Positions 7,069 through 56,618 of a DNA stretch of 64,000 bases are shown here, piece by piece. The notes under the pieces were generated by a model that worked only from the letters and a program-made list of their open reading frames with translations, was not told the DNA's origin and did no database searches. A program made the translations under genes and the position numbers. The first letter of the stretch is position 1. Every line of letters starts with the position of its first letter. The stretch is from Candidatus Hadarchaeota archaeon (GTDB lineage: Archaea > CAYQAE01 > CAYVLA01), in NCBI GenBank assembly GCA_964621445.1, contig CAZUNO010000009.1, positions 35,263-99,262 of the forward strand, read 5' to 3'.

Positions 7069-7998
7069 TCACTGTTCCTCCCGGGAATAGGAAGTGGATA
7101 AAGCCCCAGGGGCACCCATCCGCTTTCTTATGGACTCCTTGGATATGATAACCAGGGTTATCATAGTCACCAGGTAAGGTAAGGCCTGGAGAAGGCTGGT
7201 GTGCACTCCAAGGGGCTGAAGTTTGTAGGGAAGGACGAAGAGAAGCCCGAACATGTAGGAAGCGGCTATTGCCCTCAGTGGTCGCCAAAATGCGAAGATG
7301 GTTAGCGCTATCACAATCCACCCCCTCCCACCGCTCATCCCCTGAGTCCAGGAGGGCACGTAGGCCAGGGAGAGGTAGGCACCCGCCAGTCCGGCCAAAA
7401 GTCCGCCTATGTATACGCTTAGATGTCGAACCCTGTATACGTTGATCCCTGAAACGTCTGCCGCGGCGGGATTCTCCCCACATGATCTGATATTTAGACC
7501 CAATCTGGTTCGAAAGAGGACAAACCACCCCAGCACTGCAATAATTAGCGAGAGGTAGACCAAGGGATCCTGGTTAAATAGAATCTTGCCCAGTATGGGT
7601 ATCCTGGAAAGTAGGGGTATCTCCAAGGGGTCCAGGGTAGCCCCCGGGGGTTTTCCAACATAGCTCTTGCCAAGCAGGCCACTGATGCCTAGGCCCAGCA
7701 TGGTCAACGCCAGGCCGGATACAACTTGATTTGCCCTAAGGTTTACAGTGGCCACGCTGTGAACGAGGGAAAGGGCGCCACCAGCGAGTGCTGCAGCGAT
7801 TAGTCCTAGCCATGGATTTCCAGTGGACAGACATACCCCAAAAGCAACTACCGCACCCATGCTCATCATGCCCTCAACGCCCAGGTTCAATATTCCCGAT
7901 CTCTCGGCATAAATCTCCCCTAGCGTCCCCAGAAGCAAAGGAGTGCCGTAGATGATCATTCTTCGGAGAGTGAATATGGCCTCCTCTTCGAAAGTCAA
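7069..7998 (-). CDS. ABC transporter permease (BPD_transp_2, nucleoside type)
   Basis: ERSGILNLGVEGMM, GENPAAADVSGINV, GRGWIVIAL. Confidence 0.9.
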   Translation of the reverse strand: MTFEEEAIFTLRRMIIYGTPLLLGTLGEIYAERSGILNLGVEGMMSMGAVVAFGVCLSTGNPWLGLIAAALAGGALSLVHSVATVNLRANQVVSGLALTMLGLGISGLLGKSYVGKPPGATLDPLEIPLLSRIPILGKILFNQDPLVYLSLIIAVLGWFVLFRTRLGLNIRSCGENPAAADVSGINVYRVRHLSVYIGGLLAGLAGAYLSLAYVPSWTQGMSGGRGWIVIALTIFAFWRPLRAIAASYMFGLLFVLPYKLQPLGVHTSLLQALPYLVTMITLVIISKESIRKRMGAPGALSTSYSREEQ

Positions 7999-9086
7999 CC
8001 TCTCCCCTCCCTTTCGATCTTGATCTCGTACTTCCTGAGAATCTCCGTTGAAACCAAAAGTAGAAGTATCAGCCCCATGAATATGTCTATTGACGCCGCC
8101 GGGACTCCTCCCGTCCTAACCGCATTACCCCCTACCAGCAGGCCGGAAACAAATATGGAGGACACCACCACACCGAGCGGATTAAGCCTGGCCAGCCAGG
8201 CCACTATAATGGCCGTAAAACCATACCCGGCAGAGATATCCAGGGGGTAAGAAAGCTTTCCGTGAACTCCGGCGACCTCTCCCACCCCCGCCAGTCCCGC
8301 GAGGCCACCGCTAATCAGCCCGATAATGATCAGGGTCTTGGCATAGCTGATGCCAGCGTATTTACCGGCCTTTGGATTCTCCCCTGTAACCTTGATCTCA
8401 TAACCCGACCTCGTCCTGGATAGGAAGAAGTAGAGACCCAGCGAGGCAACGATGGCCATAATCAGTGTTGGATAGGCGATCCTGGTTCCTGGAAGAAGAG
8501 GAACCCTAGCCGCCTGTACAAAGGGGTCCGTGTAGGGGTAGCCGTGTTGGGTTGGGCCCTTCCAGGGACCGTCCACCAGATAGGTCACGAAGTATATGGC
8601 CACATAATTGAGCATGAGAGTGGTGATAACCTCGTTAACCTTCAACTTGGCCCTGAGCAGGGCGGGTATCATACACCACGCGGCACCGAGCAGGGACCCC
8701 AGGGCAAACATTGCAGGGAGCAGGACCCAGGACGGCGTCTCCTGAAAAGACAAAGCCAGCCAGGTGGCACCCGCGGCACCCGCGAGTATCTGACCCTCGG
8801 CCCCGATATTCCAGAACACGGCGCGAAAGGCGATGGCCAGGCCTGCCCCACATAGCATCAGGGGGATGGCCTTCCTCATTATCTCCTTCCAACCACTCAG
8901 GCTACCGAAGGACCCTAGCAGAATCCTCTCGTAGGCAAAGATGGGGCTGACCCCTATCAGGGAGAAGAAGAGCCCGCCCAGTATTATGCCCAATATGATC
9001 ATGGAAACGGTAACCAGGAACCCCTTGCTACCTAGTTCCTCTTTCCGTCTCCTTATTCTAATCCTGGGAAGCCAACCCATAACCAT
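7995..9086 (-). CDS. ABC transporter permease (nucleoside type)
   Basis: WNIGAEGQ, NEVITTLMLNY, GENPKAGKYAGI, GYGFTAIIVAWL. Confidence 0.9.
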   Translation of the reverse strand: MVMGWLPRIRIRRRKEELGSKGFLVTVSMIILGIILGGLFFSLIGVSPIFAYERILLGSFGSLSGWKEIMRKAIPLMLCGAGLAIAFRAVFWNIGAEGQILAGAAGATWLALSFQETPSWVLLPAMFALGSLLGAAWCMIPALLRAKLKVNEVITTLMLNYVAIYFVTYLVDGPWKGPTQHGYPYTDPFVQAARVPLLPGTRIAYPTLIMAIVASLGLYFFLSRTRSGYEIKVTGENPKAGKYAGISYAKTLIIIGLISGGLAGLAGVGEVAGVHGKLSYPLDISAGYGFTAIIVAWLARLNPLGVVVSSIFVSGLLVGGNAVRTGGVPAASIDIFMGLILLLLVSTEILRKYEIKIEREGRG

Positions 9087-10609
9087 TATGAAAGAGCACC
9101 TCCCATCAACATGCCCACCCTCTCCCTGGTTGCCCCATCTCTATCCAGTATCTCCACTATTTGCCCGTCGGAGATTACCGCTATCCTGTCACTCAGCGTG
9201 AATATCTCATCGAGGTCCTCCGAATCCAGGAACACCGATGCCCCTCTACCTGCCTCGTTCAGAAGCCGCTTCCTGATATCGCTGGCCGCCTTGACATCCA
9301 AACCGGAGGTAGGATGGGAGGCGATTATCAACCTAGGTTCTCTCGAGGTCTCCCTAGCCAGTATCAATCGTTGGATATTCCCCCCGGACAATTTCTTCAC
9401 CGGCGTACCCGTGGAGGGAGTAAAAATGGAATATTCATCGATCATCTCCCTTGCAAAGTCCTCGATCTCCTCTCGGTTGAGCATGATCCCGCTGGAGAAA
9501 GGTTCTTGCCAGTACTTCCTTAGGACAAGATTTTCAGCGACGCTCATCCCCTCCACCACGCCGAACTCAACCCTGTCCTCTGGTATGTAGGCAACTCCCA
9601 GCGATACGATACGCCTGGGATTAGCGTTGGTTACATCCTGGCCATCGATCACTACAGTTCCAGAAACCGAGGGCCGGAGGCCGGTTATTGCCTCCACCAG
9701 CTCCCTCTGACCGTTCCCTGCTACTCCAGCTACACCCAGTATTTCGCCCGCGTGAACCTCGAATGAAACGTCACTGACGGCCTCATACCCGCGGTCCCCC
9801 AAAACCGAGAAGTTTTCCACCTTCATAACCTCCTTGGCCTCAACGGTTCCCATTCTCTTGGCCGGCTGCGAGAGGTGTTCACCGACCATCATCCTGGCCA
9901 GCTCCTCCCTGCTGGTTTCCTCTATATCCTTGGAGCCGACCAGCTTTCCGTTCCTGAGTACGGTTACCCAGTCGGCGACGGACATGACCTCGTTCAGCTT
10001 GTGGGTAATGAATATCAGAGCTTTACCCCTCTCGGCCATTAGCCTGAGAGCCGAGAACAGGTCCCTGGACTCGATGGGTGTCAGAACCGAGGTCGGCTCG
10101 TCCAGTATTATCATTCTGGCCCCTGAAAATAGAGCCTTTAGTATCTCTATGGTCTTCTTCTCTCCCGCCGATAACTGCCATACCTCGGCCTCGGGATCCA
10201 CTTTGAGACCGTAGACATCGGAGTATTTATCCACCCAATCCTTTACCTGATCCTCCGGGAAGAGCAGGCTGCCTTCAGGGAGCCCCAACGAAATGTTTTC
10301 TGCAACCGAACTAGGATTTACCAACATGAAGTGTTGGTGAACCATCCCAACACCCAGGTCCCTGGCATCCATTGGGGACCGTATATTGACCTTTTCCCCC
10401 TGGATGCGTATCTCGCCCGAATCCTGGCGGTAAATGCCGTATAATATATTCACCAGCGTGGTCTTTCCCGCCCCGTTCTCCCCCAGAAGAGCATGAATCT
10501 CCCCGGCCTTCACGGTGAGGTCTATGCCATCGTTGGCCACCACCCCAGGGAAGCTCTTGGTAATTCCCTTGGCCTCCAATACGATATCGCCATTTTCAGG
10601 CTGAGGCAA
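9086..10609 (-). CDS. ABC transporter ATP-binding protein, two ATPase domains (CUT2/nucleoside type)
   Basis: GENGAGKTT, LDEPTSVL, GVAGNGQREL, LSGGNIQR; start reassigned to TTG 10609 because a promoter lies inside the longer ORF. Confidence 0.88.
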   Translation of the reverse strand: MPQPENGDIVLEAKGITKSFPGVVANDGIDLTVKAGEIHALLGENGAGKTTLVNILYGIYRQDSGEIRIQGEKVNIRSPMDARDLGVGMVHQHFMLVNPSSVAENISLGLPEGSLLFPEDQVKDWVDKYSDVYGLKVDPEAEVWQLSAGEKKTIEILKALFSGARMIILDEPTSVLTPIESRDLFSALRLMAERGKALIFITHKLNEVMSVADWVTVLRNGKLVGSKDIEETSREELARMMVGEHLSQPAKRMGTVEAKEVMKVENFSVLGDRGYEAVSDVSFEVHAGEILGVAGVAGNGQRELVEAITGLRPSVSGTVVIDGQDVTNANPRRIVSLGVAYIPEDRVEFGVVEGMSVAENLVLRKYWQEPFSSGIMLNREEIEDFAREMIDEYSIFTPSTGTPVKKLSGGNIQRLILARETSREPRLIIASHPTSGLDVKAASDIRKRLLNEAGRGASVFLDSEDLDEIFTLSDRIAVISDGQIVEILDRDGATRERVGMLMGGALS

Positions 10610-10716
10610 CGAAAGAGATGTTCCCGTCCTCTCCCCACTGAGAACTCTCAGAAAGGACCTCGCCTGGGACCCAAATGACGACAGGGAACCTTGTCCGGGG
10701 ATACTCCCACCTGGAC
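10610..10716 (-). promoter_or_regulatory. Structured 5' leader (three-way junction) of the BMP ABC operon
   Basis: GUUCCC/GGGAAC, UCGUC/GGCGA and GUCCUUUC/GAGAGGAC stems, with G-U pairs valid only on the mRNA strand; BRE-TATA GAAAAGTCTTTTAT at 10749-10736. Confidence 0.45.
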
Positions 10717-10792
10717 TGGGCCTCTCGGAGATGGGATAAAAGACTTTTCTAGATTTGGAAGTGCCGCCCGCACAGACCCCGAGGCATATCAA

Positions 10793-13700
10793 TCAGGACC
10801 CGCTCTTGAGCTGTTCCCGGGCCAAAAATGTGGCCGATAACGAGATTATCCAGAGCCCCAGGCCCAGCAATCCATTCTCAGTTATTTGGAATCCCCTGAA
10901 ATCCCTTCGGTATTGAAGATCTGTGTCAGCGTCAAAGATACCGTTCGAATTGGTATCCAGGACGATGTCATAGGAACCGAGCTCCAGCCGGTTTTCCCAA
11001 ACCGGATAGGTGGAAGAACCGGACGGAGCCACTATTTCATCATAGCCATCGGTGGAAATGTCCACCAGCGGTTCACCACTCCTCGCTTTCCCGTCTCTAA
11101 CCACGCGAAACCGGAGCGAATAGTCCCTGGGGGATACCACCGTAACGTAAACGGTATCGGTGATGGAGTAATCGACCTTCTCCCCGCCCCGCTCATCCGA
11201 TGCAAAAAATCGGATATCGGGGGTTGCCGCTAGGGAGATGGCAAGTGACTCGTTAACGCTAACCCACCTTTCCAACCGTTGATAGCCGGTCTTGTTAATC
11301 GATACCCGCCATTCTCCCTCCTCAAGCCATATATCCAACGGGAATTCCTCTACCAGGTATTCTTCTCGACCCACACAAACCGAGAGGTCGGCCAGGGGAA
11401 CTAGATTGACAGCGTCCCTAACAACGATCGATACCTGGTGCATCTCCTTCTGGCTGCTTATACCGGCGGTTGTATTTTGGGAACTGGAATCTCCGTCATC
11501 ATCCATAACCTCCAACATAATCTCATATTTTCCGGGCCCGGAATATGTATGATTGACCACCATTCCGGTCCCCGTCGTACCGTCCCCGAAGGCCCAGCGG
11601 TAGGTAACCACCCTGCCGTCCACGTCATAGGACCATGACCCGTCAAAGGTCACCGGTTCTCCCACAGAGCCCGAGTAGGGTCCGTGTGGATCGGCTCTCG
11701 GCAGGCGGTTCGAAGGCCTGATCTCTATGAAACCATTCTGGACATGATTATCCCGGGGATCTCTTTCCCAGGCAAGTACCTCTGCTCTGGCAGCTATGGT
11801 CCTCTCACCCATACTGGCTTCCGAGGTATCCCAAGTAAATTCATAAATTCTCTCGGTTCCCGAATCCAGCTCCGCCTCGAATGAGCCCACAACCTCCTCT
11901 CCCCATTCAATCCAAATTGACATATTCTGATCCGTTGACCCCTTGTTCTCGATACCAATGCTGATCTCCACGTCCTTTCCCCTGTGAACGCTTCTGGTTC
12001 CCGGGAGAACAGAATTTACCCTTATATCAGGCGCTGCCTCAACCTCCACCAATCCCCACTCCAGGTAATTATCTCCAACTGAGGTTTCTCCCTCCAGAGG
12101 TTCAAGAACCAGGCAGAGCATCGCTTTTCCTGCCTCGATGTCCGATGTGTTCCACATAAAACTGGTATTCACCGTGGACCCGGAAGATATGGAGAAAATC
12201 TTCTCGGTATCTCTGCTGGAATTAAATTCGAGGGCCAGAACTCCCTGTTGAGTCGAGCCTCCATAATTCTTGATTTTGACCCAAACGTCAACCCTCTGCC
12301 CCTGAACTGGAGAATCGTTGGAGATGGTTACCTCTAGAATTCCTAGGTCCGGCCTCGGAAGCACCTCAAAGCTGGATTGGCTCTCCGTATCCGTTCCGTC
12401 CGCCATCCCATTCCTATTGAGGTCCAACCAGGCCCTGTAAAGGCCCTCTTCGCCTATATCTCCCACTGGCGTGCAGGAAATACGCCCTTCCCCGTCCGCA
12501 GTTATCTCCTTCTCCAGGGAGGCAAGGGTTGGGTCCATATCCTGATCGGAATGCCCGATATAGGCGTCAAAGGTGATGTTTGACGGGAAGCCGCTGCCGG
12601 AGATATGTATGGTGTCCCCTGGAAAGAAGTGATCTCTCTCGCGGCCTAACTCGTCACAGAAGTCAAGCTTCATCTCAGGAGGATCGTCTCCCAGCCAGAA
12701 ATAGACGTAACAGGATGGCGGCCCGGTGTAGTCCCCTCTCACCTGGGCACCCACGACATGGTAACAACCGCTTCCCTGGCCCTGAGGCAGGAACTGTATG
12801 TCGAATTCTCCTTCAGACGACACCTCGCCGGCCTTTACAAACAGGTCATCCCAGATTATCTTTACGCTGGCGTTGGGTGGAAATCCCTGACCCACGACAT
12901 TTACCGTTGAACCCGGCAAAGCGTTTTCCGGTTCCAGATACATCTCCATCGGCCATTGGGAAACTTCAAATGTCCGATTTACGTGATCCAAGCCCGGGAA
13001 CCCGGTAGATATGCTTAGCTCATGAGCTCCCAGGTCGATGGTCCTATTCAATTGATAATCCATCTGGAAGCAACCCTCAACATCTATCACTCCACCTCCG
13101 ACCTTCACCCCGTCCACCAGTGCAAAATACACCGATTCCGGGGGGTAATTACAGCCAATTACGGTTATCAACCCTCCCGGGTACTGATGGTCGGAAACTA
13201 CTCCCGTTTCTGCCCTCCACTGGGTTATGTTTAGTCTGTAATTTCTAGTCGGGGGTCCCGAATAACCATCGACGGTAAAGGTCAAATCATGGAGACCTAA
13301 TGCAATATCCCTTGATAGAACAATGGATATGGTAAAGTTACCATCCCCGCTGGTAATTCCGGAAAATCTCTTTGAGGAATCCATATAGACCTCGAAGTCC
13401 GCTGCGGGTGGGAACTGGCTTCCGGTTAAGGTCAGATTGGAGCCTGGATGAATATCGGATGGCCGGATATCTACCAATAGGGGCCATTGGGTTAGATTGA
13501 AGGAGAGTTCCGCCTTGGGAGGACCTGTGAACTGGGGTGTCACCCCTGAGATCGTATGTTCCCCCAGAGTGGCGTTATTCCTGAACTCATGGACAAAGCT
13601 GAACCTCCCACGAGAACTCGTGTTCCCTGATCCTATTTCCTCATTATCAAGGCTGACCACAAACCGGGTATTAGGAGGGAAGAATCTGCCTTTCACGGTG

Positions 13701-14596
13701 ACGTTGCTGCCGGGGTGTCGATGAATTGGCTCCAGGGTGATCTCACAGGGCCATTGAATTACCTCAAAATCAATGTAGGTCCTCGGGGGACCGGTGTATT
13801 TCGTTGCGGTAATCTCCAGGACATGATTTCCCGTGGATATGTGTGGCGAAATCTGATAATTCCTGGAGAATTCTCCCCGTGCATCGGACGTGCCCACCCG
13901 AACCGAAGCTCCGTCGAGCAATATCTCGTATCTCGATAGGGGAGGTAGATGGGATCCGGATATGGACACGAAGGCGCCTGGATATGGGTCTGAGGGGTCA
14001 ATTACCAATTCCGGCTCCCACTGGTCTACCTTTAGCACCTCAGCTGCCGATGGGGGACCCGCAAACATGGGAGCCTTTCCAGTGACCTCGCAATCGCCAA
14101 CCAGCATTTGTTTTGGTACCGAGTAAAGACGGCAAAAGGTACCATTCTCATCGGTAGCACCCTCTAGAGTGGCGTTACCACAGATATCCACTCTATAGAA
14201 AGCATTCGGCGGGTAGCCCCGTCCGCAGATCGTCAGGTCCTGGCCTGGTTTGAGAATACTTGGGCTCAGATTCATCGCCGCGGGCCATTGAACGACCCGT
14301 ATCTCCGTTGAGGCGTTTATTGACCCCGAAACGGCCGTGAGGTTGTGCAATCCTATTGTTGTCTGCCTGGGAAGGGTCATCTTTCGGTGAAATGTACCGC
14401 CAGGATAGCTAGTGTCGCTAGCCACGCTCTCATTATCTATGAAAATCTCGAAATCTGCTGAGCCGGGAAACCCGGAACCGCTCACGGTAATCCTCGTACC
14501 CGGATGTGGTGATTCCTCCTCGACCACCACCGTGGGAGATGCTAGTACCCCACAAATAGCGGAAATCATGCATAGGAAGACCGGGATGGCGATCAT
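10793..14596 (-). CDS. Large surface protein: about 8 IPT/Ig-like repeats, 2 CARDB, PKD, PEGA-like domain, C-terminal TM anchor
   Basis: Signal peptide from ATG 14596; repeats PGxxxxxxGxxFPP...QW; PDLGILEV/PDIRVNSV CARDB; PKD FDGSWSYDVDG..YRWAFGDG; DxNxNG loops. Confidence 0.8.
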   Translation of the reverse strand: MIAIPVFLCMISAICGVLASPTVVVEEESPHPGTRITVSGSGFPGSADFEIFIDNESVASDTSYPGGTFHRKMTLPRQTTIGLHNLTAVSGSINASTEIRVVQWPAAMNLSPSILKPGQDLTICGRGYPPNAFYRVDICGNATLEGATDENGTFCRLYSVPKQMLVGDCEVTGKAPMFAGPPSAAEVLKVDQWEPELVIDPSDPYPGAFVSISGSHLPPLSRYEILLDGASVRVGTSDARGEFSRNYQISPHISTGNHVLEITATKYTGPPRTYIDFEVIQWPCEITLEPIHRHPGSNVTVKGRFFPPNTRFVVSLDNEEIGSGNTSSRGRFSFVHEFRNNATLGEHTISGVTPQFTGPPKAELSFNLTQWPLLVDIRPSDIHPGSNLTLTGSQFPPAADFEVYMDSSKRFSGITSGDGNFTISIVLSRDIALGLHDLTFTVDGYSGPPTRNYRLNITQWRAETGVVSDHQYPGGLITVIGCNYPPESVYFALVDGVKVGGGVIDVEGCFQMDYQLNRTIDLGAHELSISTGFPGLDHVNRTFEVSQWPMEMYLEPENALPGSTVNVVGQGFPPNASVKIIWDDLFVKAGEVSSEGEFDIQFLPQGQGSGCYHVVGAQVRGDYTGPPSCYVYFWLGDDPPEMKLDFCDELGRERDHFFPGDTIHISGSGFPSNITFDAYIGHSDQDMDPTLASLEKEITADGEGRISCTPVGDIGEEGLYRAWLDLNRNGMADGTDTESQSSFEVLPRPDLGILEVTISNDSPVQGQRVDVWVKIKNYGGSTQQGVLALEFNSSRDTEKIFSISSGSTVNTSFMWNTSDIEAGKAMLCLVLEPLEGETSVGDNYLEWGLVEVEAAPDIRVNSVLPGTRSVHRGKDVEISIGIENKGSTDQNMSIWIEWGEEVVGSFEAELDSGTERIYEFTWDTSEASMGERTIAARAEVLAWERDPRDNHVQNGFIEIRPSNRLPRADPHGPYSGSVGEPVTFDGSWSYDVDGRVVTYRWAFGDGTTGTGMVVNHTYSGPGKYEIMLEVMDDDGDSSSQNTTAGISSQKEMHQVSIVVRDAVNLVPLADLSVCVGREEYLVEEFPLDIWLEEGEWRVSINKTGYQRLERWVSVNESLAISLAATPDIRFFASDERGGEKVDYSITDTVYVTVVSPRDYSLRFRVVRDGKARSGEPLVDISTDGYDEIVAPSGSSTYPVWENRLELGSYDIVLDTNSNGIFDADTDLQYRRDFRGFQITENGLLGLGLWIISLSATFLAREQLKSGS

Positions 14597-14673
14597 CTTA
14601 TTCCTTATGCCAAACACCCCGACAGTAACTCCGCGATTCAGATAAGTATGTTTCGAAACCCAATGCGTCAAGT

Positions 14674-15459
14674 TTAGGGGAAGATGAACAGGACAAAAAC
14701 AACATACAGGCAGCATAGGGAACAGATCATCAAGTCGCCTCTACCGAAATGGCTTTTTCTCAGATAGGTCCTTTTTCGTGACGAACCAAATCCCCGGCCT
14801 TCCATGGAAATTGAAATTTGGTCCACCCTTGTTAGCGCCGACACAAGCAAGGGGTACAACGTGTATCGGGCAACTCTCAGTAAGGTTCTTGGCCCCGGCT
14901 TATCTATCTTCAGACCCCTTGCGATCTGGGCCGTCCTCACCGTATTGGCCTCGATCTGGAAAAGTGGTATAAACCGGAGCGCAAGTATCAGGGTGAACCC
15001 ATATCGATATGGTATGCCTCTTTCCATCAGCGAGTAAGCCATTATTGAGGGATCGGTGGTTCCCACAAATACCAGGCTCGACACTATTATTATCATCAGC
15101 CTCAAGGCTATTCTGGCCCCGGTGGTGATGCCCCCGGTGGTGATAACCAGGGGACCAAGGGGTCCCAGGTCAAGACCAATCAGAGGGCCGCCGCTCCTGT
15201 TGAACAGGGCCTGGAGCAGGAACAAAACAAGACAGAGACCGGTAATGGCCCTTATCCTCCGCATTCCGGCCATAAAACCCATTCCCGATGCCCCCACCAG
15301 TCCCAGAGTAATGAGGATAGTTAGGATCATTACCAGCAAACTGGTCGAAAACAGGGCTATCAGGCAGAAAGAGATTAGCATGACTATCTTGGAAAGAGGG
15401 TCCATTTTATGCAGAAACGAATGACCTGGAACATATCCAATTCTTCTCAATTTTTCCAC
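14674..15459 (-). CDS. ecfT: ECF transporter transmembrane component T (CbiQ-like)
   Basis: SFLHKMDPLSK, LALRFIP, AQIARG and SMEGRGF conserved Arg motifs. Confidence 0.92.
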   Translation of the reverse strand: MEKLRRIGYVPGHSFLHKMDPLSKIVMLISFCLIALFSTSLLVMILTILITLGLVGASGMGFMAGMRRIRAITGLCLVLFLLQALFNRSGGPLIGLDLGPLGPLVITTGGITTGARIALRLMIIIVSSLVFVGTTDPSIMAYSLMERGIPYRYGFTLILALRFIPLFQIEANTVRTAQIARGLKIDKPGPRTLLRVARYTLYPLLVSALTRVDQISISMEGRGFGSSRKRTYLRKSHFGRGDLMICSLCCLYVVFVLFIFP

Positions 15460-16940
15460 CTGGTGGGCAGGTAATAATCCTCGCCCGACCGTTCAAGGTA
15501 TCGGAAGACATCATTCGGCCTTCCTTCCCGGACTATCCTCCCTCGTCTCAGGAAAACTAATCTGCTGCAATATCGGTCAACGAAATTGGGGTCGTGGGTG
15601 GTGATCACGCAACTGGAACCGTCCTCAACTCGGGGTATTACTACCTCCATGATCCTCTCCACGTTATCCATGTCCTGTCCTATGAAAGGTTCATCCAGGA
15701 GGTATAGTTTGGGCCTGTAAACGGCCACCGAAGCCACATTAACCCTTCTCTTCTCCCCCGTGCTGAGGCTGTAGGGTGACTCATCGGCGTACTTGACGAG
15801 ATGTAGGGACTCCAGCATCTCACCAGTCCCTCGCTCAATCTCCCGATTCTTCATACCGAAGTTACGGGGGCCAAACTCCACCTCGCGTCTAACCGTCATC
15901 TCAACTATCTGGTGGGTTGGGTTCTGGAAGATAATTCCCACATCCCGTGATACCTCGGAGGTTGGCCCCACCATATTGCCGTCAATCAGCACCTCTCCCT
16001 GGTCAAGTTCCAGAAGTCCAACCAAACAGGCGAGGAGAGTGGTCTTTCCTGAACCATTATCACCCATGAGACCGATGATTTCCCCCCGATTTACCTCCAA
16101 GTCTATTCCCTTCAGCACCTTCTTGCCCCCTAAACTTATGCAAGCATTTCTAGTCACCGCTAGAGGTGCGGGCCCGATTTCTCCCTCTACACCAACATCC
16201 CTCGGGTGATATTCTCTAACATGGGATGGAATGGAATGAGATACGTTGATGTGCCCTTCGGATAATTTTCCCACCTTCATTTTCCTCGGCCCCAACCAGT
16301 CATATCGATGCTCAATGAGCACTATGGTAACTCCTCTGGCGTTAAGGGAATCCAACACTACTCTAAGTTCTCTCTTTGATGGAGGATCCAGGCTGGAGGT
16401 TGGTTCATCTAAAATCAGGATCTCTGGCTCCAGGGCCAGGATGGAGGCAATGGCAACCTTCTGCTTCTCACCTCCTGATAACTCAGCTATGTTCCTGGTT
16501 ATCAGATGATCCCCCTTTACCGAACGCAGTGCCCACTCAATCCGCTGTCTCATATCTGCCTCTTTCATCCCCATGTTTTCTGGGCCAAAGGCAACCTCAT
16601 CCTCCACTCTCAGTGTAACTATTTGAGAATCCGGGTCCTGTTGGACTAGACCGATAACCGTGACCAGGTCCTCCCTATCACGCGAGAAAACGCTCTCCCC
16701 ATCGATTCTCACATCGCCCGCCAGGTGCCCATCATCCGGGCCGAGGAAGCCCGTCGCCAGTTTTGCCAGAGTACTCTTGCCGCTACCGCTTTCGCCGGTT
16801 ATTAGTATGAAATCCCCACCCCCCACCTCGAGATTCATGTTTTTGATTACCGGTTCGGCACTTCCCGGATATCTAAAGGTGAGGTCTTTGAAATCTAACA
16901 ATCTCAGATCAGCTCTATGAAGGAGATCTTGCGGACCCAA
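15447..16940 (-). CDS. ecfA: ECF transporter fused double ATPase (EcfA-EcfA')
   Basis: Two Walker A motifs (GESGSGKST, GDNGSGKTT); QQDPDSQ/FQNPTHQ Q-loops; LSGGEKQK and LSTGEKRR; start may be slightly downstream. Confidence 0.92.
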   Translation of the reverse strand: MGPQDLLHRADLRLLDFKDLTFRYPGSAEPVIKNMNLEVGGGDFILITGESGSGKSTLAKLATGFLGPDDGHLAGDVRIDGESVFSRDREDLVTVIGLVQQDPDSQIVTLRVEDEVAFGPENMGMKEADMRQRIEWALRSVKGDHLITRNIAELSGGEKQKVAIASILALEPEILILDEPTSSLDPPSKRELRVVLDSLNARGVTIVLIEHRYDWLGPRKMKVGKLSEGHINVSHSIPSHVREYHPRDVGVEGEIGPAPLAVTRNACISLGGKKVLKGIDLEVNRGEIIGLMGDNGSGKTTLLACLVGLLELDQGEVLIDGNMVGPTSEVSRDVGIIFQNPTHQIVEMTVRREVEFGPRNFGMKNREIERGTGEMLESLHLVKYADESPYSLSTGEKRRVNVASVAVYRPKLYLLDEPFIGQDMDNVERIMEVVIPRVEDGSSCVITTHDPNFVDRYCSRLVFLRRGRIVREGRPNDVFRYLERSGEDYYLPTRWKN

Positions 16941-17917
16941 AGTGATCCATCAAGGTTATCTGCAACTAAACTAAATTCGCCCTCTTCCTCCTCCACAATT
17001 ATTGTTTTATCATTTCTCACCCGTTTCAGTTCAAGCTTCACCTTATATCCATCCTCAGCAACCAGCCTCACTCCAGTTGCATTGGGTTTTGGAATGGCCT
17101 CCTCAATTACCAGAGCCAGGGGGACCCCCGTGTAGTTACGAGGTTCAAGGTGGACGTAAGATCCCTCCAACTCCGCTTCAACGGTAATTACATCATCCCT
17201 GAAATCTTCCTCCTTGTAGCTATATGGGTTCTCGACCAGACCCCTTACCTCTATGCCCTGCCCAACACCCCAGGAGTAAACGGTGGAGTAATACCAAATT
17301 GAACCCGCTAGCAAAAGTACCACTACGATGTACCCGATGGCAGCCACCCCTTTTGAGACTTCATCCCGGTCAGGGACGGTAACTATCCCCGAATGGATAA
17401 GGGAAGCTAGCACCCCTTTGGCAAAATAACCCGCGAACAACACCCCGCTGGCAAATGCCAGGAGGGTTATTCCCAATATAAAGTAGATAGGTACCCCGGA
17501 AAGAAATAGCAGCTGAAAAACGAAGACATTTGATGCCGTGCTCAACCCACCTGACAACATCATGGTGAATCCCTGATTTGATTTTGATCTTAGCATCAGG
17601 ACATCAACTATAAGACCCTCCACCAGGGATACGAGAACGACTATCACCCCGTGAACGCTTCCCATAAGAAGCTCAATAACACCCTTGGAAAGGCCGGTCA
17701 GAGTGCCAGAACCATTTCTCCTGGTGGTCCCCCTGGCCAATAGTATCCAGAAAACATGGAGACCGGCCAGAAACTGGCCGGCACCGAAGGGCGTTCCCAC
17801 GAAATTGTTTACCAGGTTGGCCAAATAACCTATGTAGGTGCTTGAGACCCCTCCCAGGCCACTAATCACCGCTATGGTCACAAGATCTCTGGTAGAGAAA
17901 CTGGAAGGTAGCTTCAT
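16904..17917 (-). CDS. ECF S component (YkoE-like) fused to an extracellular Oxidored_molyb-like domain
   Basis: FSTRDLVTIAVISG start, about 6 TM plus 1 extra TM; C-terminal VRGLVENP..YTGVPL..A.DGY..WVRKISFIE sulfite-oxidase-fold pattern. Confidence 0.75.
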   Translation of the reverse strand: MKLPSSFSTRDLVTIAVISGLGGVSSTYIGYLANLVNNFVGTPFGAGQFLAGLHVFWILLARGTTRRNGSGTLTGLSKGVIELLMGSVHGVIVVLVSLVEGLIVDVLMLRSKSNQGFTMMLSGGLSTASNVFVFQLLFLSGVPIYFILGITLLAFASGVLFAGYFAKGVLASLIHSGIVTVPDRDEVSKGVAAIGYIVVVLLLAGSIWYYSTVYSWGVGQGIEVRGLVENPYSYKEEDFRDDVITVEAELEGSYVHLEPRNYTGVPLALVIEEAIPKPNATGVRLVAEDGYKVKLELKRVRNDKTIIVEEEEGEFSLVADNLDGSLWVRKISFIELI

Positions 17918-17950
17918 GCTGAATCGCTCCCGTCCGGGTTCAACCGCTCA

Positions 17951-19843
17951 TCACTGCCCCGGTACATGATATATTATCTTTACTAAATTGCTTACCATAT
18001 ACTTACTTGACAGATCGCTGCCAACAACCCTCAGAGGCCCCTCATCCTCAGGCAGAACCTCGCCATCCTTCTTGTAAGCAAGAATGATATCATCATTCCT
18101 AGCAACCAGGGTGCTGTTCAAAGTCCTCGAATAACCATCACCAGCAATGACCTCAACACCATAACCCCCAGCAGCCAGATCATCATCAAAAAGATAATGA
18201 CCCTCCGGATCCATCTTACCATCCACAATACTAAGCACAACCCACAAAGGAAAACCAGAATACATATGAGTCTCATCATGCATAGTAACCTCCACCGAGG
18301 TACGATGAGTCCCACAAGTGGCACCGGAGATGAAAGAAGACCTGTTCAACACAGCATTCACACTACCCGAAAGCTCGACATCCCAATCCTTAACAGGCTG
18401 GTTTACCACTATTTCGGCAACCTCCTTCACCCAGTAGTGACCATCGGTTATCTGTCCCGAATCGCCAACGTAACCAAGGCGGAGAGGACCTCCGCTGAAA
18501 TCACTGCTTCCGTCCATTTCATAGATCAACACTCCATCAACACCCCCCATCCCGGTTTCCGTGCCCTGGCTATCATAGGTGATAACCTGACCCTCGATCT
18601 CCTCGTGGGAAAGCATCATGCTATAGCCATCTGAGGCAATAACCTCCACGCTGTAATTTGCTGGCAGGTCTCCGGTCATTTCTATTAGAGGCTCTATGGG
18701 AGCCCCAACCACCTCGTAGGGTCCCCGAACTGTTCCTGTGACCTTCTTGAATCCCGCACTTCCCTCAATGTTCTCCATTCTGATTATGTCCGAAAGGAAC
18801 AGTTGCTTAGTCTTCTCACCCTCTACCTTTAACTTCCACAGGGTGTAGAACTCAATGCTATCCACGTCCTCAACCAAGATGCCCTCTCCCACCAAAGCGG
18901 GGGCAGCTAGGGAATCTCCATCGGCCATCTGGGCAATAATCATCTGACTTTCAGACAGGGCCCTGCTATCCAGGCTAGTACTGTTGGCCCCTGAAACCCT
19001 TACCTCATAGCCACTTTGCGCATAACTAAGGTTGAAAGTGGAGTCACCTATTTTGGGACCACCATCCACCAGGCCAAGAATCCTGGATATCTCCAGGCCA
19101 CTCCAACTTGTCCCCGACGCTCTTGTGATGTTGGTTAGATTTCCGTACGAAAGTGATTCAAATTCCGACCTCGACAGGTCCATGGAACGGCTCCCGTTTA
19201 ACGTCATCGTCCATTCGGTTTCCGGCGACCGCTCTCGCGTAATCTCGAATTTCCACGTGTCTCTAACCAAACGGGATCCAGCTGATGGATTTACGAAATA
19301 TCCATGACCAGCTCCCGATGTGTATCTCACGTCGATATTACTCAGATCCCCGTCTTCAGGTAAGAACACCGTTCTAGGGCCTTTCTCCCAACCGGGTATA
19401 TCCTCTCCATCGAGGGAGAATGCGAGTATGAAATCCCCCTGAAGACTCTCCCAGTATGGGCTTGGATAAACGTTATAATAGTTATACTCCTGAAAATACC
19501 CGTCGGTACTGGAAATGGTCAGTATGTCACCAGGTTCCATGCCCCCGACCTTTTCTACCAGTTCCGAGATCTTAACCCCTTCAAAGGTCGACGATTCTCC
19601 CCAATTACCGAGTCGATTCTCGTATCGCATATCACCGGACATGGAATCCATATCCTTGAGCTCACTAAAGTCGAGGATAACCTCCGATCCCTCTCTCCCT
19701 ATCAAGGTAATGTTTGCATAGGTCTTGTTCTCCGATTCCGAGGGACCGGAAAATAGGAACCAGACGAATCCTCCTCCTATTATTACTATGGCTACCAATA
19801 TGAGGGCTAGTTGCTTTCCATTTTGATCTCCGTTACCAGACAT
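17951..19843 (-). CDS. Membrane-anchored protein with four Oxidored_molyb (sulfite-oxidase-fold)-like repeats
   Basis: N-terminal TM; repeated FEGVKISEL/WSGLEI/VVGAPI/YSGFPL, (S/G)DGY, ILA(F/Y)xxDG and GP(L)R motifs; RBS GGTGTGA before ATG 19843. Confidence 0.75.
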   Translation of the reverse strand: MSGNGDQNGKQLALILVAIVIIGGGFVWFLFSGPSESENKTYANITLIGREGSEVILDFSELKDMDSMSGDMRYENRLGNWGESSTFEGVKISELVEKVGGMEPGDILTISSTDGYFQEYNYYNVYPSPYWESLQGDFILAFSLDGEDIPGWEKGPRTVFLPEDGDLSNIDVRYTSGAGHGYFVNPSAGSRLVRDTWKFEITRERSPETEWTMTLNGSRSMDLSRSEFESLSYGNLTNITRASGTSWSGLEISRILGLVDGGPKIGDSTFNLSYAQSGYEVRVSGANSTSLDSRALSESQMIIAQMADGDSLAAPALVGEGILVEDVDSIEFYTLWKLKVEGEKTKQLFLSDIIRMENIEGSAGFKKVTGTVRGPYEVVGAPIEPLIEMTGDLPANYSVEVIASDGYSMMLSHEEIEGQVITYDSQGTETGMGGVDGVLIYEMDGSSDFSGGPLRLGYVGDSGQITDGHYWVKEVAEIVVNQPVKDWDVELSGSVNAVLNRSSFISGATCGTHRTSVEVTMHDETHMYSGFPLWVVLSIVDGKMDPEGHYLFDDDLAAGGYGVEVIAGDGYSRTLNSTLVARNDDIILAYKKDGEVLPEDEGPLRVVGSDLSSKYMVSNLVKIIYHVPGQ

Positions 19844-19849
19844 GATCAC

Positions 19850-19891
19850 ACCGATATGCACGGCCATGCATAACGGTCTTTAAACTCTTTC
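19850..19891 (-). promoter_or_regulatory. BRE/TATA promoter with ModE-box-like operator overlapping the predicted start site
   Basis: Inverted repeat ACCGATATGCA-N6-TGCATAACGGT (19850-19877, 1 mismatch) directly downstream of GAAAGAGTTTAAA. Confidence 0.65.
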
Positions 19892-20029: not shown

Positions 20030-20407
20030 ATGCGTGTAAAGAAAATGAAGCACCCATTGGTTGGCATCGGAGCGGCGGGAATCGTATCCACACTTGCCTT
20101 TACGCTCTTCATTCTGCCCCAGTCTCCGTCCTTCGAGGTGGGGGATGTAGTCGACACTACCATTCTTCTGAGTCTCGGATTCACCGCTCTACTTGCAGTT
20201 GGTTTGGCCAGGATGGCTAGAGGGATAAACCCCAGGAACCAGGGCCAGTCACCCTCAACCGCGGGTTGGTCAACGAGGTGCCCGGATTGTGGTCGATTCA
20301 TTGAAAGAAGGAGAACCTACTGCCCCCAATGCGGCGCTGATCTAAGGTTTGAGAGGGGAAATCCGCCGCGATCCCTGGCCTGCGAAAATTCAGATGATTC
20401 TGGTTAA
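20030..20407 (+). CDS. Two-TM protein with C-terminal Zn ribbon
   Basis: Two hydrophobic segments; CPDCG...CPQCG. Confidence 0.65.
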   Translation: MRVKKMKHPLVGIGAAGIVSTLAFTLFILPQSPSFEVGDVVDTTILLSLGFTALLAVGLARMARGINPRNQGQSPSTAGWSTRCPDCGRFIERRRTYCPQCGADLRFERGNPPRSLACENSDDSG

Positions 20408-21781
20408 AGGTAGATCGGATCTGGCAATCGGCCTGAATTTGCTTCTCATTCTGATATTCTCAGGAGGGCAATCAATGTCCTGCAGAACGGAGAGAAATTC
20501 TCCATGTGCCGACCTTGCATCCTCTTCACGCCACTCCATGAGGTTACATTCCTCCCCAGGATCGTTCCCCAGGTCAAAATATTCGCTTTCACACTCATCT
20601 CCACCATATACATAGAGGTAATTGGAGGTCCTAAGAGATGTGGGAGGCCGAACTTCGCGGTCCTGAACATAGGTATGACTCGACACCGCCCATTCTCTAC
20701 CCCTTTGGTTCCCACGGACCACCGGAAGCATGGATATTCCCTGTACGGTTTCCGGGATCGATGCTCCAGCTGCATCCAGTATGGTTGGCATAAGGTCTGG
20801 TGGCTGGAAGAATGCGGGACATGATCCCGGTTTTAGTCCGGGCATCCTTATGATCAAGGGGATATGGGAGATCGTCCCGTACAGGGGCCACCTCCTGGTT
20901 ATCCGGTTCTCCCTGTCAAGTTCCACCTTTCCTATAAAACCATGCTCACCATGATAGAAACCATGATCGCTAGTGAGGATGATGCAGGTTTCATCATATA
21001 TACCCATGCCCTTCAAGGTGTCCAGGAGATGCCCGACCCATCGATCAACAAGACTCACTTCCCCGGCGTACATGAACATCATGTGCTTTATCTCTGAGCT
21101 AGTCGCGTAATCCGATGACTCGTATGCGGGTTCGAAAAGCTCCTGCCCTTCATATCCGGGATCATATTGATCTATATAGTATCTCGGAGGGTTCCAGGGC
21201 TCGTGTGGATCAAAAGTATCGACGGAAAGGAAGAAGGTGTCATCCAAGGAATGTATTTTCTCCAGCAGGCAGGAAGCTCGTCTCATAGTCCTCGCAACGA
21301 ACCGATCCTCCTCGCATTTCCACGTGGATTCCACCTTCTTGATCCTTCGTAGCCTCTCCAAAGGCACTCTGAGCTTCCTCTTTTCGGCAGGAAGGTCGAT
21401 TGCGCCCCCCTCTTCGACCTCAACTCCATGCCCGGCCTGCCCTTCTATCAATTCGAATTGCTGAAATCCTCTCCTGTGGGGTGAGTTTGATGGCGTGTCG
21501 GTAATCATGCCAGTTTGGAATCCATCCTTCTGAAGGATCTCAGGTAGCACAGCGTGGCTCGGATCCCAGGTATCTCGCCAACTTAGGTAGGGAAAGGTGA
21601 ACCTCCCGGAATACAGGTCCCTTCTCATTGGGCCAGTGGGAAAACTGGCTGCAAAGAAGTTGGTGAATGTCACCGATTCTCGGGCCAAGGAGTCTATCCG
21701 CGGGGTTCTTATCCAAGTGTTGCCATAGCAGCTCAAATAGTCCTGTCGAAGCGAATCGCAGACGATAAGCAGGATATTCAT
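20390..21781 (-). CDS. Sulfatase-like hydrolase (alkaline phosphatase superfamily) with Thr at the nucleophile position
   Basis: NILLIVCDSLR, TPRIDSLA, FDPHEPW, TSDHG; signature reads TGPMR instead of (C/S)xPxR. Confidence 0.85.
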   Translation of the reverse strand: MNILLIVCDSLRQDYLSCYGNTWIRTPRIDSLARESVTFTNFFAASFPTGPMRRDLYSGRFTFPYLSWRDTWDPSHAVLPEILQKDGFQTGMITDTPSNSPHRRGFQQFELIEGQAGHGVEVEEGGAIDLPAEKRKLRVPLERLRRIKKVESTWKCEEDRFVARTMRRASCLLEKIHSLDDTFFLSVDTFDPHEPWNPPRYYIDQYDPGYEGQELFEPAYESSDYATSSEIKHMMFMYAGEVSLVDRWVGHLLDTLKGMGIYDETCIILTSDHGFYHGEHGFIGKVELDRENRITRRWPLYGTISHIPLIIRMPGLKPGSCPAFFQPPDLMPTILDAAGASIPETVQGISMLPVVRGNQRGREWAVSSHTYVQDREVRPPTSLRTSNYLYVYGGDECESEYFDLGNDPGEECNLMEWREEDARSAHGEFLSVLQDIDCPPENIRMRSKFRPIARSDLPLTRII

Positions 21782-52143: not shown

Positions 52144-52265
52144 CCCGCGGTAGCTCAACTTGGCAGAGCGGACGGCTGTAGACCCATGTCCGTGATAGCC
52201 ACCGTCAGGCGTGGGGTCCCCATGCCCGGTATAGGTTGTGAGTTCAAATCTCACCCGCGGGACCA
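52144..52265 (+). tRNA. tRNA-Tyr(GTA) with two introns (52182-52200 at 37/38; 52207-52232 at 43/44), CCA encoded
   Basis: CCCGCGG/CCGCGGG-A-CCA acceptor with C1-G72 (archaeal Tyr identity); GACGG/CCGTC anticodon stem; GTGAG-TTCAAAT-CTCAC T arm; BHB motifs. Confidence 0.9.
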
Positions 52266-56519: not shown

Positions 56520-56618
56520 GCCGGGGTAGCCAAGACTGGAAAGGCGGCAGATTCGAGAGGTAAAACCGTCATATCTGTTGCTCTTTTGAGCACGTGGGTT
56601 CAAATCCTGCCCCCGGCG
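56520..56618 (+). tRNA. tRNA-Ser(CGA) with 15-nt intron (56558-56572) at 37/38
   Basis: GCCGGGG/CCCCGGC-G acceptor; GCAGA/TCTGT anticodon stem; long variable arm TGCTC-TTTT-GAGCA; TTCAAAT T loop. Confidence 0.9.

Follow-up and report, generated by a model that had tools for sequence, protein, structure and literature searches.

The window analysed here is a stretch of 64,000 nucleotides from a Candidatus Hadarchaeota archaeon (assembly GCA_964621445.1, contig CAZUNO010000009.1, positions 35,263 to 99,262 of the forward strand), and all coordinates given for it are in window numbering. Its minus strand carries an operon for an energy-coupling factor (ECF) transporter, a candidate importer of the pterin cofactor of tungsten and molybdenum enzymes, in which the substrate-binding S component and a surface protein share domains related to the sulfite oxidase (SUOX) family and to the pterin-binding protein PruR. 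The genes of this run, in order of transcription, are:

17951-19867, minus strand: P0001, 638 amino acids, with an N-terminal membrane anchor and four predicted extracellular SUOX/PruR-like domains.
16904-17917, minus strand: P0002, 337 amino acids, a YkoE-type ECF S component followed by a transmembrane helix and a SUOX/PruR-like domain.
15447-16940, minus strand: a fused EcfA-EcfA' ATPase (YkoD-like) with two PF00005 stretches (TIGR04520, 350.9 bits; TIGR04521, 340.5 bits).
14674-15459, minus strand: the EcfT coupling component, CbiQ family (PF02361, E 1.3e-29).
10793-14716, minus strand: P0003, a C-terminally anchored surface protein of 1307 amino acids in which GxPGS Ig-like repeats occur together with CARDB and PKD domains.

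As the initial annotation had described, these genes form one minus-strand run: a gap of 33 nucleotides separates P0001 from P0002, and the subsequent genes overlap by 37, 13, and 43 nucleotides. The N-termini of homologues suggest that the true start of P0001 may be the ATG at 19843. The identities first proposed for the ECF proteins also held. P0002 matches PF09819 (Pfam, E 6.4e-16) and both NCBIfam models of ECF ATPases (TIGR04520/ECF_ATPase_1 and TIGR04521/ECF_ATPase_2) score above cut-off for the fused ATPase; S, EcfA/EcfA', and EcfT are encoded together at the locus in overlapping genes.

P0002 is made up of an S component (residues ~6-187), an extra transmembrane helix (189-212), and a SUOX/PruR-like domain (214-337); its AlphaFold model (pLDDT 86.0, pTM 0.79) shows seven long helices and then a beta-rich domain over the last of these segments. 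The best structural match of the helical part is YkoE (5edl; Z 23.0, rmsd 2.4 over 180 residues), which the profile of the S part also finds (E 1.2e-12); ThiT, RibU, BioY, and PanT are matched as well, and in the model P0002 has the six-helix fold of ECF S components. In ECF structures the chain of the S component leaves helix 6 on the cytoplasmic side. In P0002 a further hydrophobic helix follows, which, if the model is right, should carry the tail domain across the membrane and make it extracellular.

The pocket of the S component differs from that of its closest relative. In YkoE, thiamine is contacted by Tyr46, Trp49, Glu77, Gln95, and Asp131, the Glu and Gln holding its aminopyrimidine ring (PMC5037267). 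By a profile alignment to 5edl, with an offset of +2 worked out by hand, P0002 keeps two of these five contacts (Glu77 and Gln95), and Tyr46, Trp49, and Asp131 are replaced by Ala51, His54, and Gln135, the latter two invariant. We infer that the pocket would fit a different ligand with an aminopyrimidine-like ring, such as occurs in pterins.

The tail of P0002 scores below cut-off against PF00174 (18.2 bits, residues 260-314; cut-off 24), and its modelled fold matches both SUOX-family enzymes (SorA, Z 15.0; SoxC, 14.5; plant sulfite oxidase, 14.1) and PruR (7kou, Z 13.9, rmsd 2.3 over 114 residues; the neopterin complex 7rkb, 13.7; 7kom, 12.6). A profile of 27 S-component tails finds SoxC (E 1.5e-6) and SorA (1.2e-4) in the PDB. 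Across 51 full-length homologues the invariant tail residues are A248, E249, L250, G252, T263, G264, D289, G290, Y291, G324, and W327; there is no cysteine in the P0002 tail, and the segment corresponding to that of the molybdenum-ligating Cys reads A248-E249-L250 in all 51 sequences.

In P0001 (AlphaFold pLDDT 84.8), PF00174 is above cut-off for the last repeat alone (43.4 bits against 24, residues 534-631), and a direct sequence search against the PDB gave chance-level matches, so profiles were needed. One seeded with the S-component domain and iterated twice over neighbour proteins, P0001 itself being in its training set, places the four domains at residues 53-151, 216-325 (the weakest, 1e-4), 345-434, and 504-630. 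All five domains, four in P0001 and one in P0002, share a beta-beta-alpha pattern in the models, and Foldseek aligns P0001 to PruR with TMt 0.69-0.75. The four repeats and the fifth domain that the initial annotation had read as SUOX-fold thus stand. The strings that it quoted, RYENRLG, FKKVTG, ELEGSY, and ATCGTH, all occur in the two translations, P0001 repeats 1-3 lack cysteine, repeat 4 has one (present in 10 of 14 aligned homologues), and no twin-arginine motif accompanies the hydrophobic anchor of P0001.

A profile of 39 outer repeat domains finds PruR 7kom as its best PDB match (E 1.7e-7), followed by three more PruR entries (to 6e-3) and SorA. The most conserved motif of the repeat domains, D-G-Y, aligns in 7kom with N-D-Y of PruR, in which the pterin is hydrogen-bonded by the Asn and sandwiched between the Tyr, which stacks on its ring, and a Trp (PMC11194511). 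The 7kom alignment ends before that Trp; in the S domain a candidate equivalent would be W327, which is invariant. PruR, a periplasmic protein of Proteobacteria (7kou, 7kom, 7rkb, and 7kp2), resembles the present domains in being a small extracytoplasmic SUOX-like fold with no catalytic partners and, like the S domain, without the Cys. It is a signalling protein paired with the cyclase/phosphodiesterase DcpA and binds monapterin or neopterin. The domains described here, unlike PruR, are repeated or are fused to a transporter or a phosphoesterase, track tungsten/molybdenum cofactor metabolism (see below), and have no GGDEF/EAL partner, no DcpA-type gene being among the annotated recurrent neighbour clusters. 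They share a homologous core with the cofactor domain of the SUOX-family molybdoenzymes (sulfite oxidase, SorA, SoxC, and YedY/MsrP) and differ from those enzymes in being about half the size, in the invariant A-E-L-G that the S domain carries in place of a molybdenum-ligating Cys, and in the absence of a Tat signal, a dimerisation domain, and a haem partner. By this comparison the domains are probably binders rather than enzymes, an idea with a solved precedent, since they match a pterin binder of known structure.

We propose P0001 as an outer capture or relay protein. A predicted complex of P0001 with P0002 scored 0.38, against 0.00 for the best control, with 62% or more of the contacts shared between runs and a partner pLDDT of 80 or above; of 80 solved complexes 58 reach the mark used, as do 2 of 110 mismatched pairs, and those that reached it with scores of 0.60 or less comprise 7 of the 80 solved complexes and both passing mismatches. 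The prediction is weakly consistent with binding of P0001 to P0002.

Repeat 4 of P0001 belongs to a subtype of outer repeat with a conserved Cys after the first helix, found in 70 of 252 non-S domains and in 43 of 78 loci. This Cys may contact the metal of a cofactor bound there; it stands at a different distance from the helix before it than does the Cys of the true SUOX protein of the same genome (P0140, below). Repeat 1 (residues 64-135; ~19463-19678) partly matches NF041762, the 'GEGP motif-containing diheme protein' (E 7.9e-8, far below cut-off), and a family of haem proteins may also contain domains of this type.

The fusion of S component and outer domain is widespread. Among 8000 candidates scored for P0002, 376 proteins match with E of 0.001 or less (query cover 94-100% for the 120 listed), and a search of representatives for the fused S component gave 1243 matches at that threshold, 91 of them at 1e-30; the protein atlas and the representative search place the architecture in Archaea, Bacillota, and Chloroflexota. 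In a one-genome-per-species collection, 291 stretches encode a relative. Eighty loci were kept and, with the window, make up 81 sources; they are labelled Thermoplasmata, Asgard lineages, "Hadarchaeota", "Thermococci" metagenome-assembled genomes (MAGs), Bacillota (Syntrophomonadaceae, Pelotomaculum, and others), and Thermotogae. Neighbour clusters were built from open reading frames around the S gene, the caller having taken wrong-strand frames in some GC-rich loci (e.g., L053). By these clusters, the SUOX-like repeat protein shares the strand of the S gene in 78 of the 81 sources, and EcfA is present in 68.

A further partner, absent from the initial annotation and from the window operon, is a calcineurin-like metallophosphoesterase fused to a SUOX-like domain. 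It is encoded on the same strand as the S gene in 57 of the 81 sources, nearly always directly upstream of it; Pfam shows a Metallophos plus PF00174-like architecture in L017 and L055 and a Metallophos domain in L046. The window genome (G000) has its copy, P0138, on another contig, C16 (38% identity, 391 amino acids, E 1e-79), with an N-terminal membrane anchor and GD and GNHD motifs. This predicted extracellular metallophosphoesterase is counted as part of the transporter system.

Two other genes of G000 have a link to the cofactor. The most divergent of its five genes of the aldehyde ferredoxin oxidoreductase (AOR) family lies about 6 kb from P0138 (L090:13552-15357, on C16). P0140 (C21:3169-3876; L088:1462-2160) is a complete member of the SUOX family (PF00174, 125 bits); it has the Cys motif MYCVEGW, and its N-terminus is lipoprotein-like and lacks a twin-arginine. 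No genes for cofactor synthesis were seen in G000, and P0140 may receive its cofactor outside the cell or take part in salvage.

One line of evidence on what the system does comes from the genomes that carry it. G000 (96.2% complete, 4.2% contamination) has no match to MoaA_C, MoaC, MoeA_N, or MoaE, families that the control searches each found in 11 of 14 reference genomes, and no ModA/WtpA-type or TupA-type binding protein; two PF00994 matches considered as MogA/MoaB remnants were rejected as CinA-like. It nonetheless encodes the five AOR genes, the SUOX-family protein with its Cys motif, and two weak PF00384 matches. Within its own class and phylum the comparison covered five genomes (G000-G004):

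G000, G002, and G003: transporter present, MoaC and MoeA absent, five AOR genes each.
G004: transporter absent, MoaC and MoeA present together with TupA, all on one contig, five AOR genes.
G001: transporter, MoaC, and MoeA absent, no AOR gene.

The 80 loci supplied a broader set of 50 carrier genomes (27 archaeal and 23 bacterial). AOR is present in all 50. MoaC and MoeA_N are jointly present in the same 24 carriers and jointly absent from the other 26, namely 22 of the 27 archaeal and 4 of the 23 bacterial carriers, two of them complete chromosomes (G018 and G020). TupA was found in none of G000 and these 26 non-synthesising carriers (0 of 27), and PF13531 weakly in two (G006 and G046); TupA or PF13531 is present in 22 of the 24 carriers with synthesis genes.

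As so few genomes surround the window genome, a wider test was centred on the carrier G020, using 201 archaeal genomes of its class for which at least 90% completeness was requested. All 22 transporter matches in this sample span profile positions 1-4 to 344-345, and they are distributed as follows:

Genomes with AOR and without MoaC: 17 of 22 have the transporter.
Genomes with AOR and with MoaC: 5 of 57 have the transporter.
Genomes without AOR: 0 of 122 have the transporter.

Fisher's exact test gives p 6e-9, without correction for shared ancestry. Among the five carriers with both AOR and MoaC, the MoaC match of G026 is partial and the MoaC of G169 has five in-frame stops (C4:48611-49027), in a genome with the transporter and six AOR genes, where the pathway may be decaying. 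The complementarity between transporter and MoaC recurs in several phyla.

A second, independent kind of evidence is regulatory. With Rfam, 29 bacterial loci were scanned, along with the window and three archaeal loci. Of the bacterial loci 12 contain the riboswitch for the molybdenum/tungsten cofactor (RF01055), and in 10 (L017, L022, L038, L041, L046, L053, L055, L056, L058, and L076) it lies upstream of the S gene and on its strand, at 0.13-3.2 kb; where the genes in between were checked, they belong to the operon and encode SUOX-like, Metallophos, or TupA-like proteins. Many of the loci without the riboswitch are on contigs with less than 3.6 kb of sequence upstream of the S gene. Control of homologues by B12 or thiamine, which the initial annotation had raised as the contrary finding, was not seen: Rfam reported no cobalamin, thiamine pyrophosphate (TPP, RF00059), or tetrahydrofolate (THF) riboswitch in the 29 loci. 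Two bacterial carriers with a riboswitch-controlled operon, G036 (L017) and G046 (L056), lack both MoaC and MoeA, and the riboswitch ligand is therefore obtainable for them only from outside.

RNAs of the molybdenum cofactor (Moco) class are divided by the presence of the hairpin P3, and the class without it was tied to metabolism of the tungsten cofactor (Tuco, or Wco) in Regulski et al. 2008 (PMC2408646). In both L038 copies cmscan shows this third hairpin deleted (~model positions 59-74), and none of the 12 aligned copies has an insert at the P3 position. The P3-less class and the universal association with AOR favour the tungsten cofactor over Moco, which modifies the initial reading. In L038 and L058 a second P3-less riboswitch precedes a surface protein of 1761-1859 amino acids (L038:14248-19991; L058:14258-20384). 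The L038 protein has PKD, Shr-like haemoprotein-interacting HID, SUOX-like, and CHB_HEX_C domains, that of L058 is in the same cluster, and these proteins look like cofactor-harvesting ones.

We therefore consider it probable, with reasonable though incomplete confidence, that the operon encodes an ECF importer of group I, YkoEDC-like and dedicated to the tungsten/molybdenum pyranopterin cofactor, whether Tuco, Moco, or a close derivative at the level of molybdopterin (MPT). The initial proposal of a scavenging importer for a molybdenum- or tungsten-pterin is thereby supported by the riboswitches, the complementarity with MoaC and MoeA, the loss of Mod/Wtp/Tup proteins, and the similarity to PruR. 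Like YkoEDC, the group I ECF transporter of Bacillus subtilis for thiamine/hydroxymethylpyrimidine (HMP), the operon has the order S component, fused double ATPase, EcfT, with an S component of family PF09819, the same fold, and the aminopyrimidine-binding Glu and Gln. It differs from YkoEDC in the extra helix and extracellular domain of the S component, in the three replaced thiamine contacts, in partner proteins that share the outer domain, and in the control of its bacterial homologues by a Moco/Tuco riboswitch instead of a THI box.

In the mechanism we envisage, the PruR/SUOX-like outer domains, four on P0001, one on the S component, and one on the metallophosphoesterase (here P0138), would bind pterin cofactor released by other cells. 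Cofactor forms in phosphoester or pyrophosphate linkage, dinucleotides for example, would probably be trimmed by the phosphoesterase; the ligand, possibly still loaded with metal, would be handed from the outer domains to the S component and taken into its membrane pocket, and EcfAA'T would drive import. The imported cofactor would then feed the five AOR-family enzymes and the SUOX-family enzyme of an organism unable to make it. In some vitamin salvage, such as that of NAD and FAD, an outer hydrolase cleaves the compound before uptake. The present system is similar in placing an extracellular phosphoesterase beside an importer in organisms without the biosynthetic pathway, and differs in the class of cofactor and in that the hydrolase itself bears a ligand-binding domain.

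Several points weigh against this reading. Free Moco and Wco are very labile, and an imported cofactor would have to reach the bis-pterin state of AOR with no help from MoeA, MobA-type, or related functions. Binding and transport by the system are predictions from sequence. MoaA and MoaE were searched in G000 only, 19 of the 23 bacterial carriers also have MoaC and MoeA, and 5 of the 22 genomes of the class sample with AOR and without MoaC lack the transporter; the counts are uncorrected for relatedness and most of the genomes are MAGs. RF01055 was not found by Rfam in the window operon or the three archaeal loci, as expected if archaea lack this riboswitch, so that for the window the regulatory link is by homology only. 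The domains are short (~100-150 amino acids), and Moco is stated not to fit into the cleft of PruR, which is truncated (PMC11194511). The gene neighbourhoods, which the initial annotation had suggested surveying for molybdenum and tungsten genes, yielded besides the riboswitches two Pelotomaculum operons of ambiguous meaning: L058 has two TupA-like tungstate binders between the riboswitch and the S gene, and modABC lies just upstream of the operon in L038, arrangements that an importer of the oxyanion would fit equally well.

Such an importer is the main rival. In it, SUOX-like and TupA-like proteins would bind tungstate or molybdate outside the cell and feed the ECF module, as in CbiMNQO and NikMNQO for metal ions. 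Moco/Tuco riboswitches commonly control mod and tup genes (PMC2408646), and since genomes without MoaC and MoeA also lack ModA, WtpA, and TupA, the system is the only candidate molybdenum or tungsten transporter in them. An oxyanion importer cannot replace pterin synthesis, however, and in G000 and the 26 non-synthesising carriers, all of which keep AOR, there would be no pterin for the oxyanion to join; the riboswitch-bearing operons of G036 and G046 present the same difficulty. It also leaves no role for the conserved extracellular phosphoesterase, an enzyme to be expected only where the ligand is organic and phosphorylated, and the best structural and profile relatives of the outer domains bind pterins. 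It is mainly the conjunction of these features, AOR being retained where synthesis, metal insertion, and oxyanion uptake have all been lost, in genomes that have the transporter, its pterin-type domains, and the phosphoesterase, that makes this explanation unlikely.

A system importing a metal-free or partial pterin (dephospho-MPT, cyclic pyranopterin monophosphate (cPMP), or a breakdown product), to be completed by cytoplasmic enzymes of other kinds, seems to us a slim prospect. It would accommodate a short, PruR-like cleft, which may admit only a smaller pterin (PMC11194511), and the weak match of the Metallophos partner to cyclic-nucleotide phosphodiesterases, cPMP carrying a cyclic phosphate. 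Against it, the carriers without MoaC also lack MoeA, and G000 lacks in addition MoaE, MogA/MoaB, and Mod/Wtp/Tup, leaving sulfur insertion, metal insertion, and metal uptake unaccounted for. Import of thiamine or HMP as by YkoE, or of an unrelated pterin such as folate or neopterin, with SUOX-like domains unconnected to Moco, could appeal to the PF09819 family, the YkoE match, some database names (thiamin/HMP permease), and the non-Moco ligands of PruR, and is very improbable given RF01055 instead of TPP or THF riboswitches in the bacterial loci, the loss of most YkoE thiamine contacts, and a phyletic pattern that follows AOR and Moco synthesis.

The last gene of the run does not appear to belong to the cofactor importer. 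P0003 is adjacent and on the same strand, as the initial annotation had it, but is not a conserved part: no SUOX-like domain was found in it, and among the 81 sources it forms a cluster of its own (c352), unmatched in the 80 related loci. Its membership is doubtful, and it was dropped as a system member because it is unconserved and without the domain. Directly downstream of it (7995-10792, minus strand) lies a separate ABC system, comprising a BPD_transp_2 permease and a double ATPase of 568 amino acids, for which no link to the ECF operon was seen.

Just upstream of the operon, a gene at 20390-21781 (minus strand) encodes a sulfatase-fold protein without a signal peptide. Sulfatases usually carry C/S-x-P-x-R, and this protein reads TGPMR at that position. 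The gene is syntenic in L002 and L003 (cluster c25), and a paralogue (L090:7775-9253, on C16 of G000) directly follows the Metallophos-SUOX fusion P0138; the protein could be a lineage-specific extra part, for example a phosphodiesterase. P0001 and the sulfatase-like gene flank an open reading frame of the other strand (20030-20407, plus), whose 125 amino acids include hydrophobic stretches and a zinc-ribbon (Pfam). Elsewhere in the window, Rfam places two tRNAs on the plus strand (52144-52262 and 56520-56618; 119 and 99 nucleotides) that ARAGORN did not report; their lengths suggest intron-bearing archaeal tRNAs.

Moco and Wco are generally held to be too labile to share, and each cell is assumed to make its own. 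No prokaryotic importer of either, and no fusion of this kind, was found described in the full-text literature, a body that leaves out many subscription papers, and among its matches Moco uptake was found described for nematodes alone. Caenorhabditis elegans takes up dietary Moco (bioRxiv 10.1101/2020.10.08.332338), and so likewise uses cofactor made by others; it is an animal, and the abstract names no transporter. A survey of riboswitch regulons, in its available sections, has uptake categories for B12, thiamin, riboflavin, queuosine, and folate and none for Moco (PMC3766115). Peng et al. 2018 recorded "orphan" molybdoenzymes in several hundred organisms that lack a complete Moco pathway; the explanations offered in the sections available are unrecognised biosynthetic components or metal-independent enzymes, and uptake is not proposed there (PMC6147048).

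The present system would, in our judgement, be new in two respects, as an ECF importer with a new class of substrate and as a new outer capture apparatus. The balance of the evidence also tips slightly towards a wider view, that intact tungsten/molybdenum cofactor, including its dinucleotide forms, is a traded micronutrient among anaerobes, harvested by the ECF module with its surface relay and phosphoesterase, and that Thermoplasmata-like and Asgard archaea and those of the phylum of the window genome are obligate auxotrophs that rely on their neighbours for it. If the importer is what we propose, it would resolve the puzzle of the orphan molybdoenzymes and explain cofactor-dependent enzymes in uncultured anaerobes without synthesis genes, add a class of ECF substrate, and reveal the SUOX fold in a new role, that of a capture module. 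Moco research would also gain a defined uptake protein, and many uncultured archaea would be predicted to need a supply of the cofactor, or a partner that produces it, in culture.

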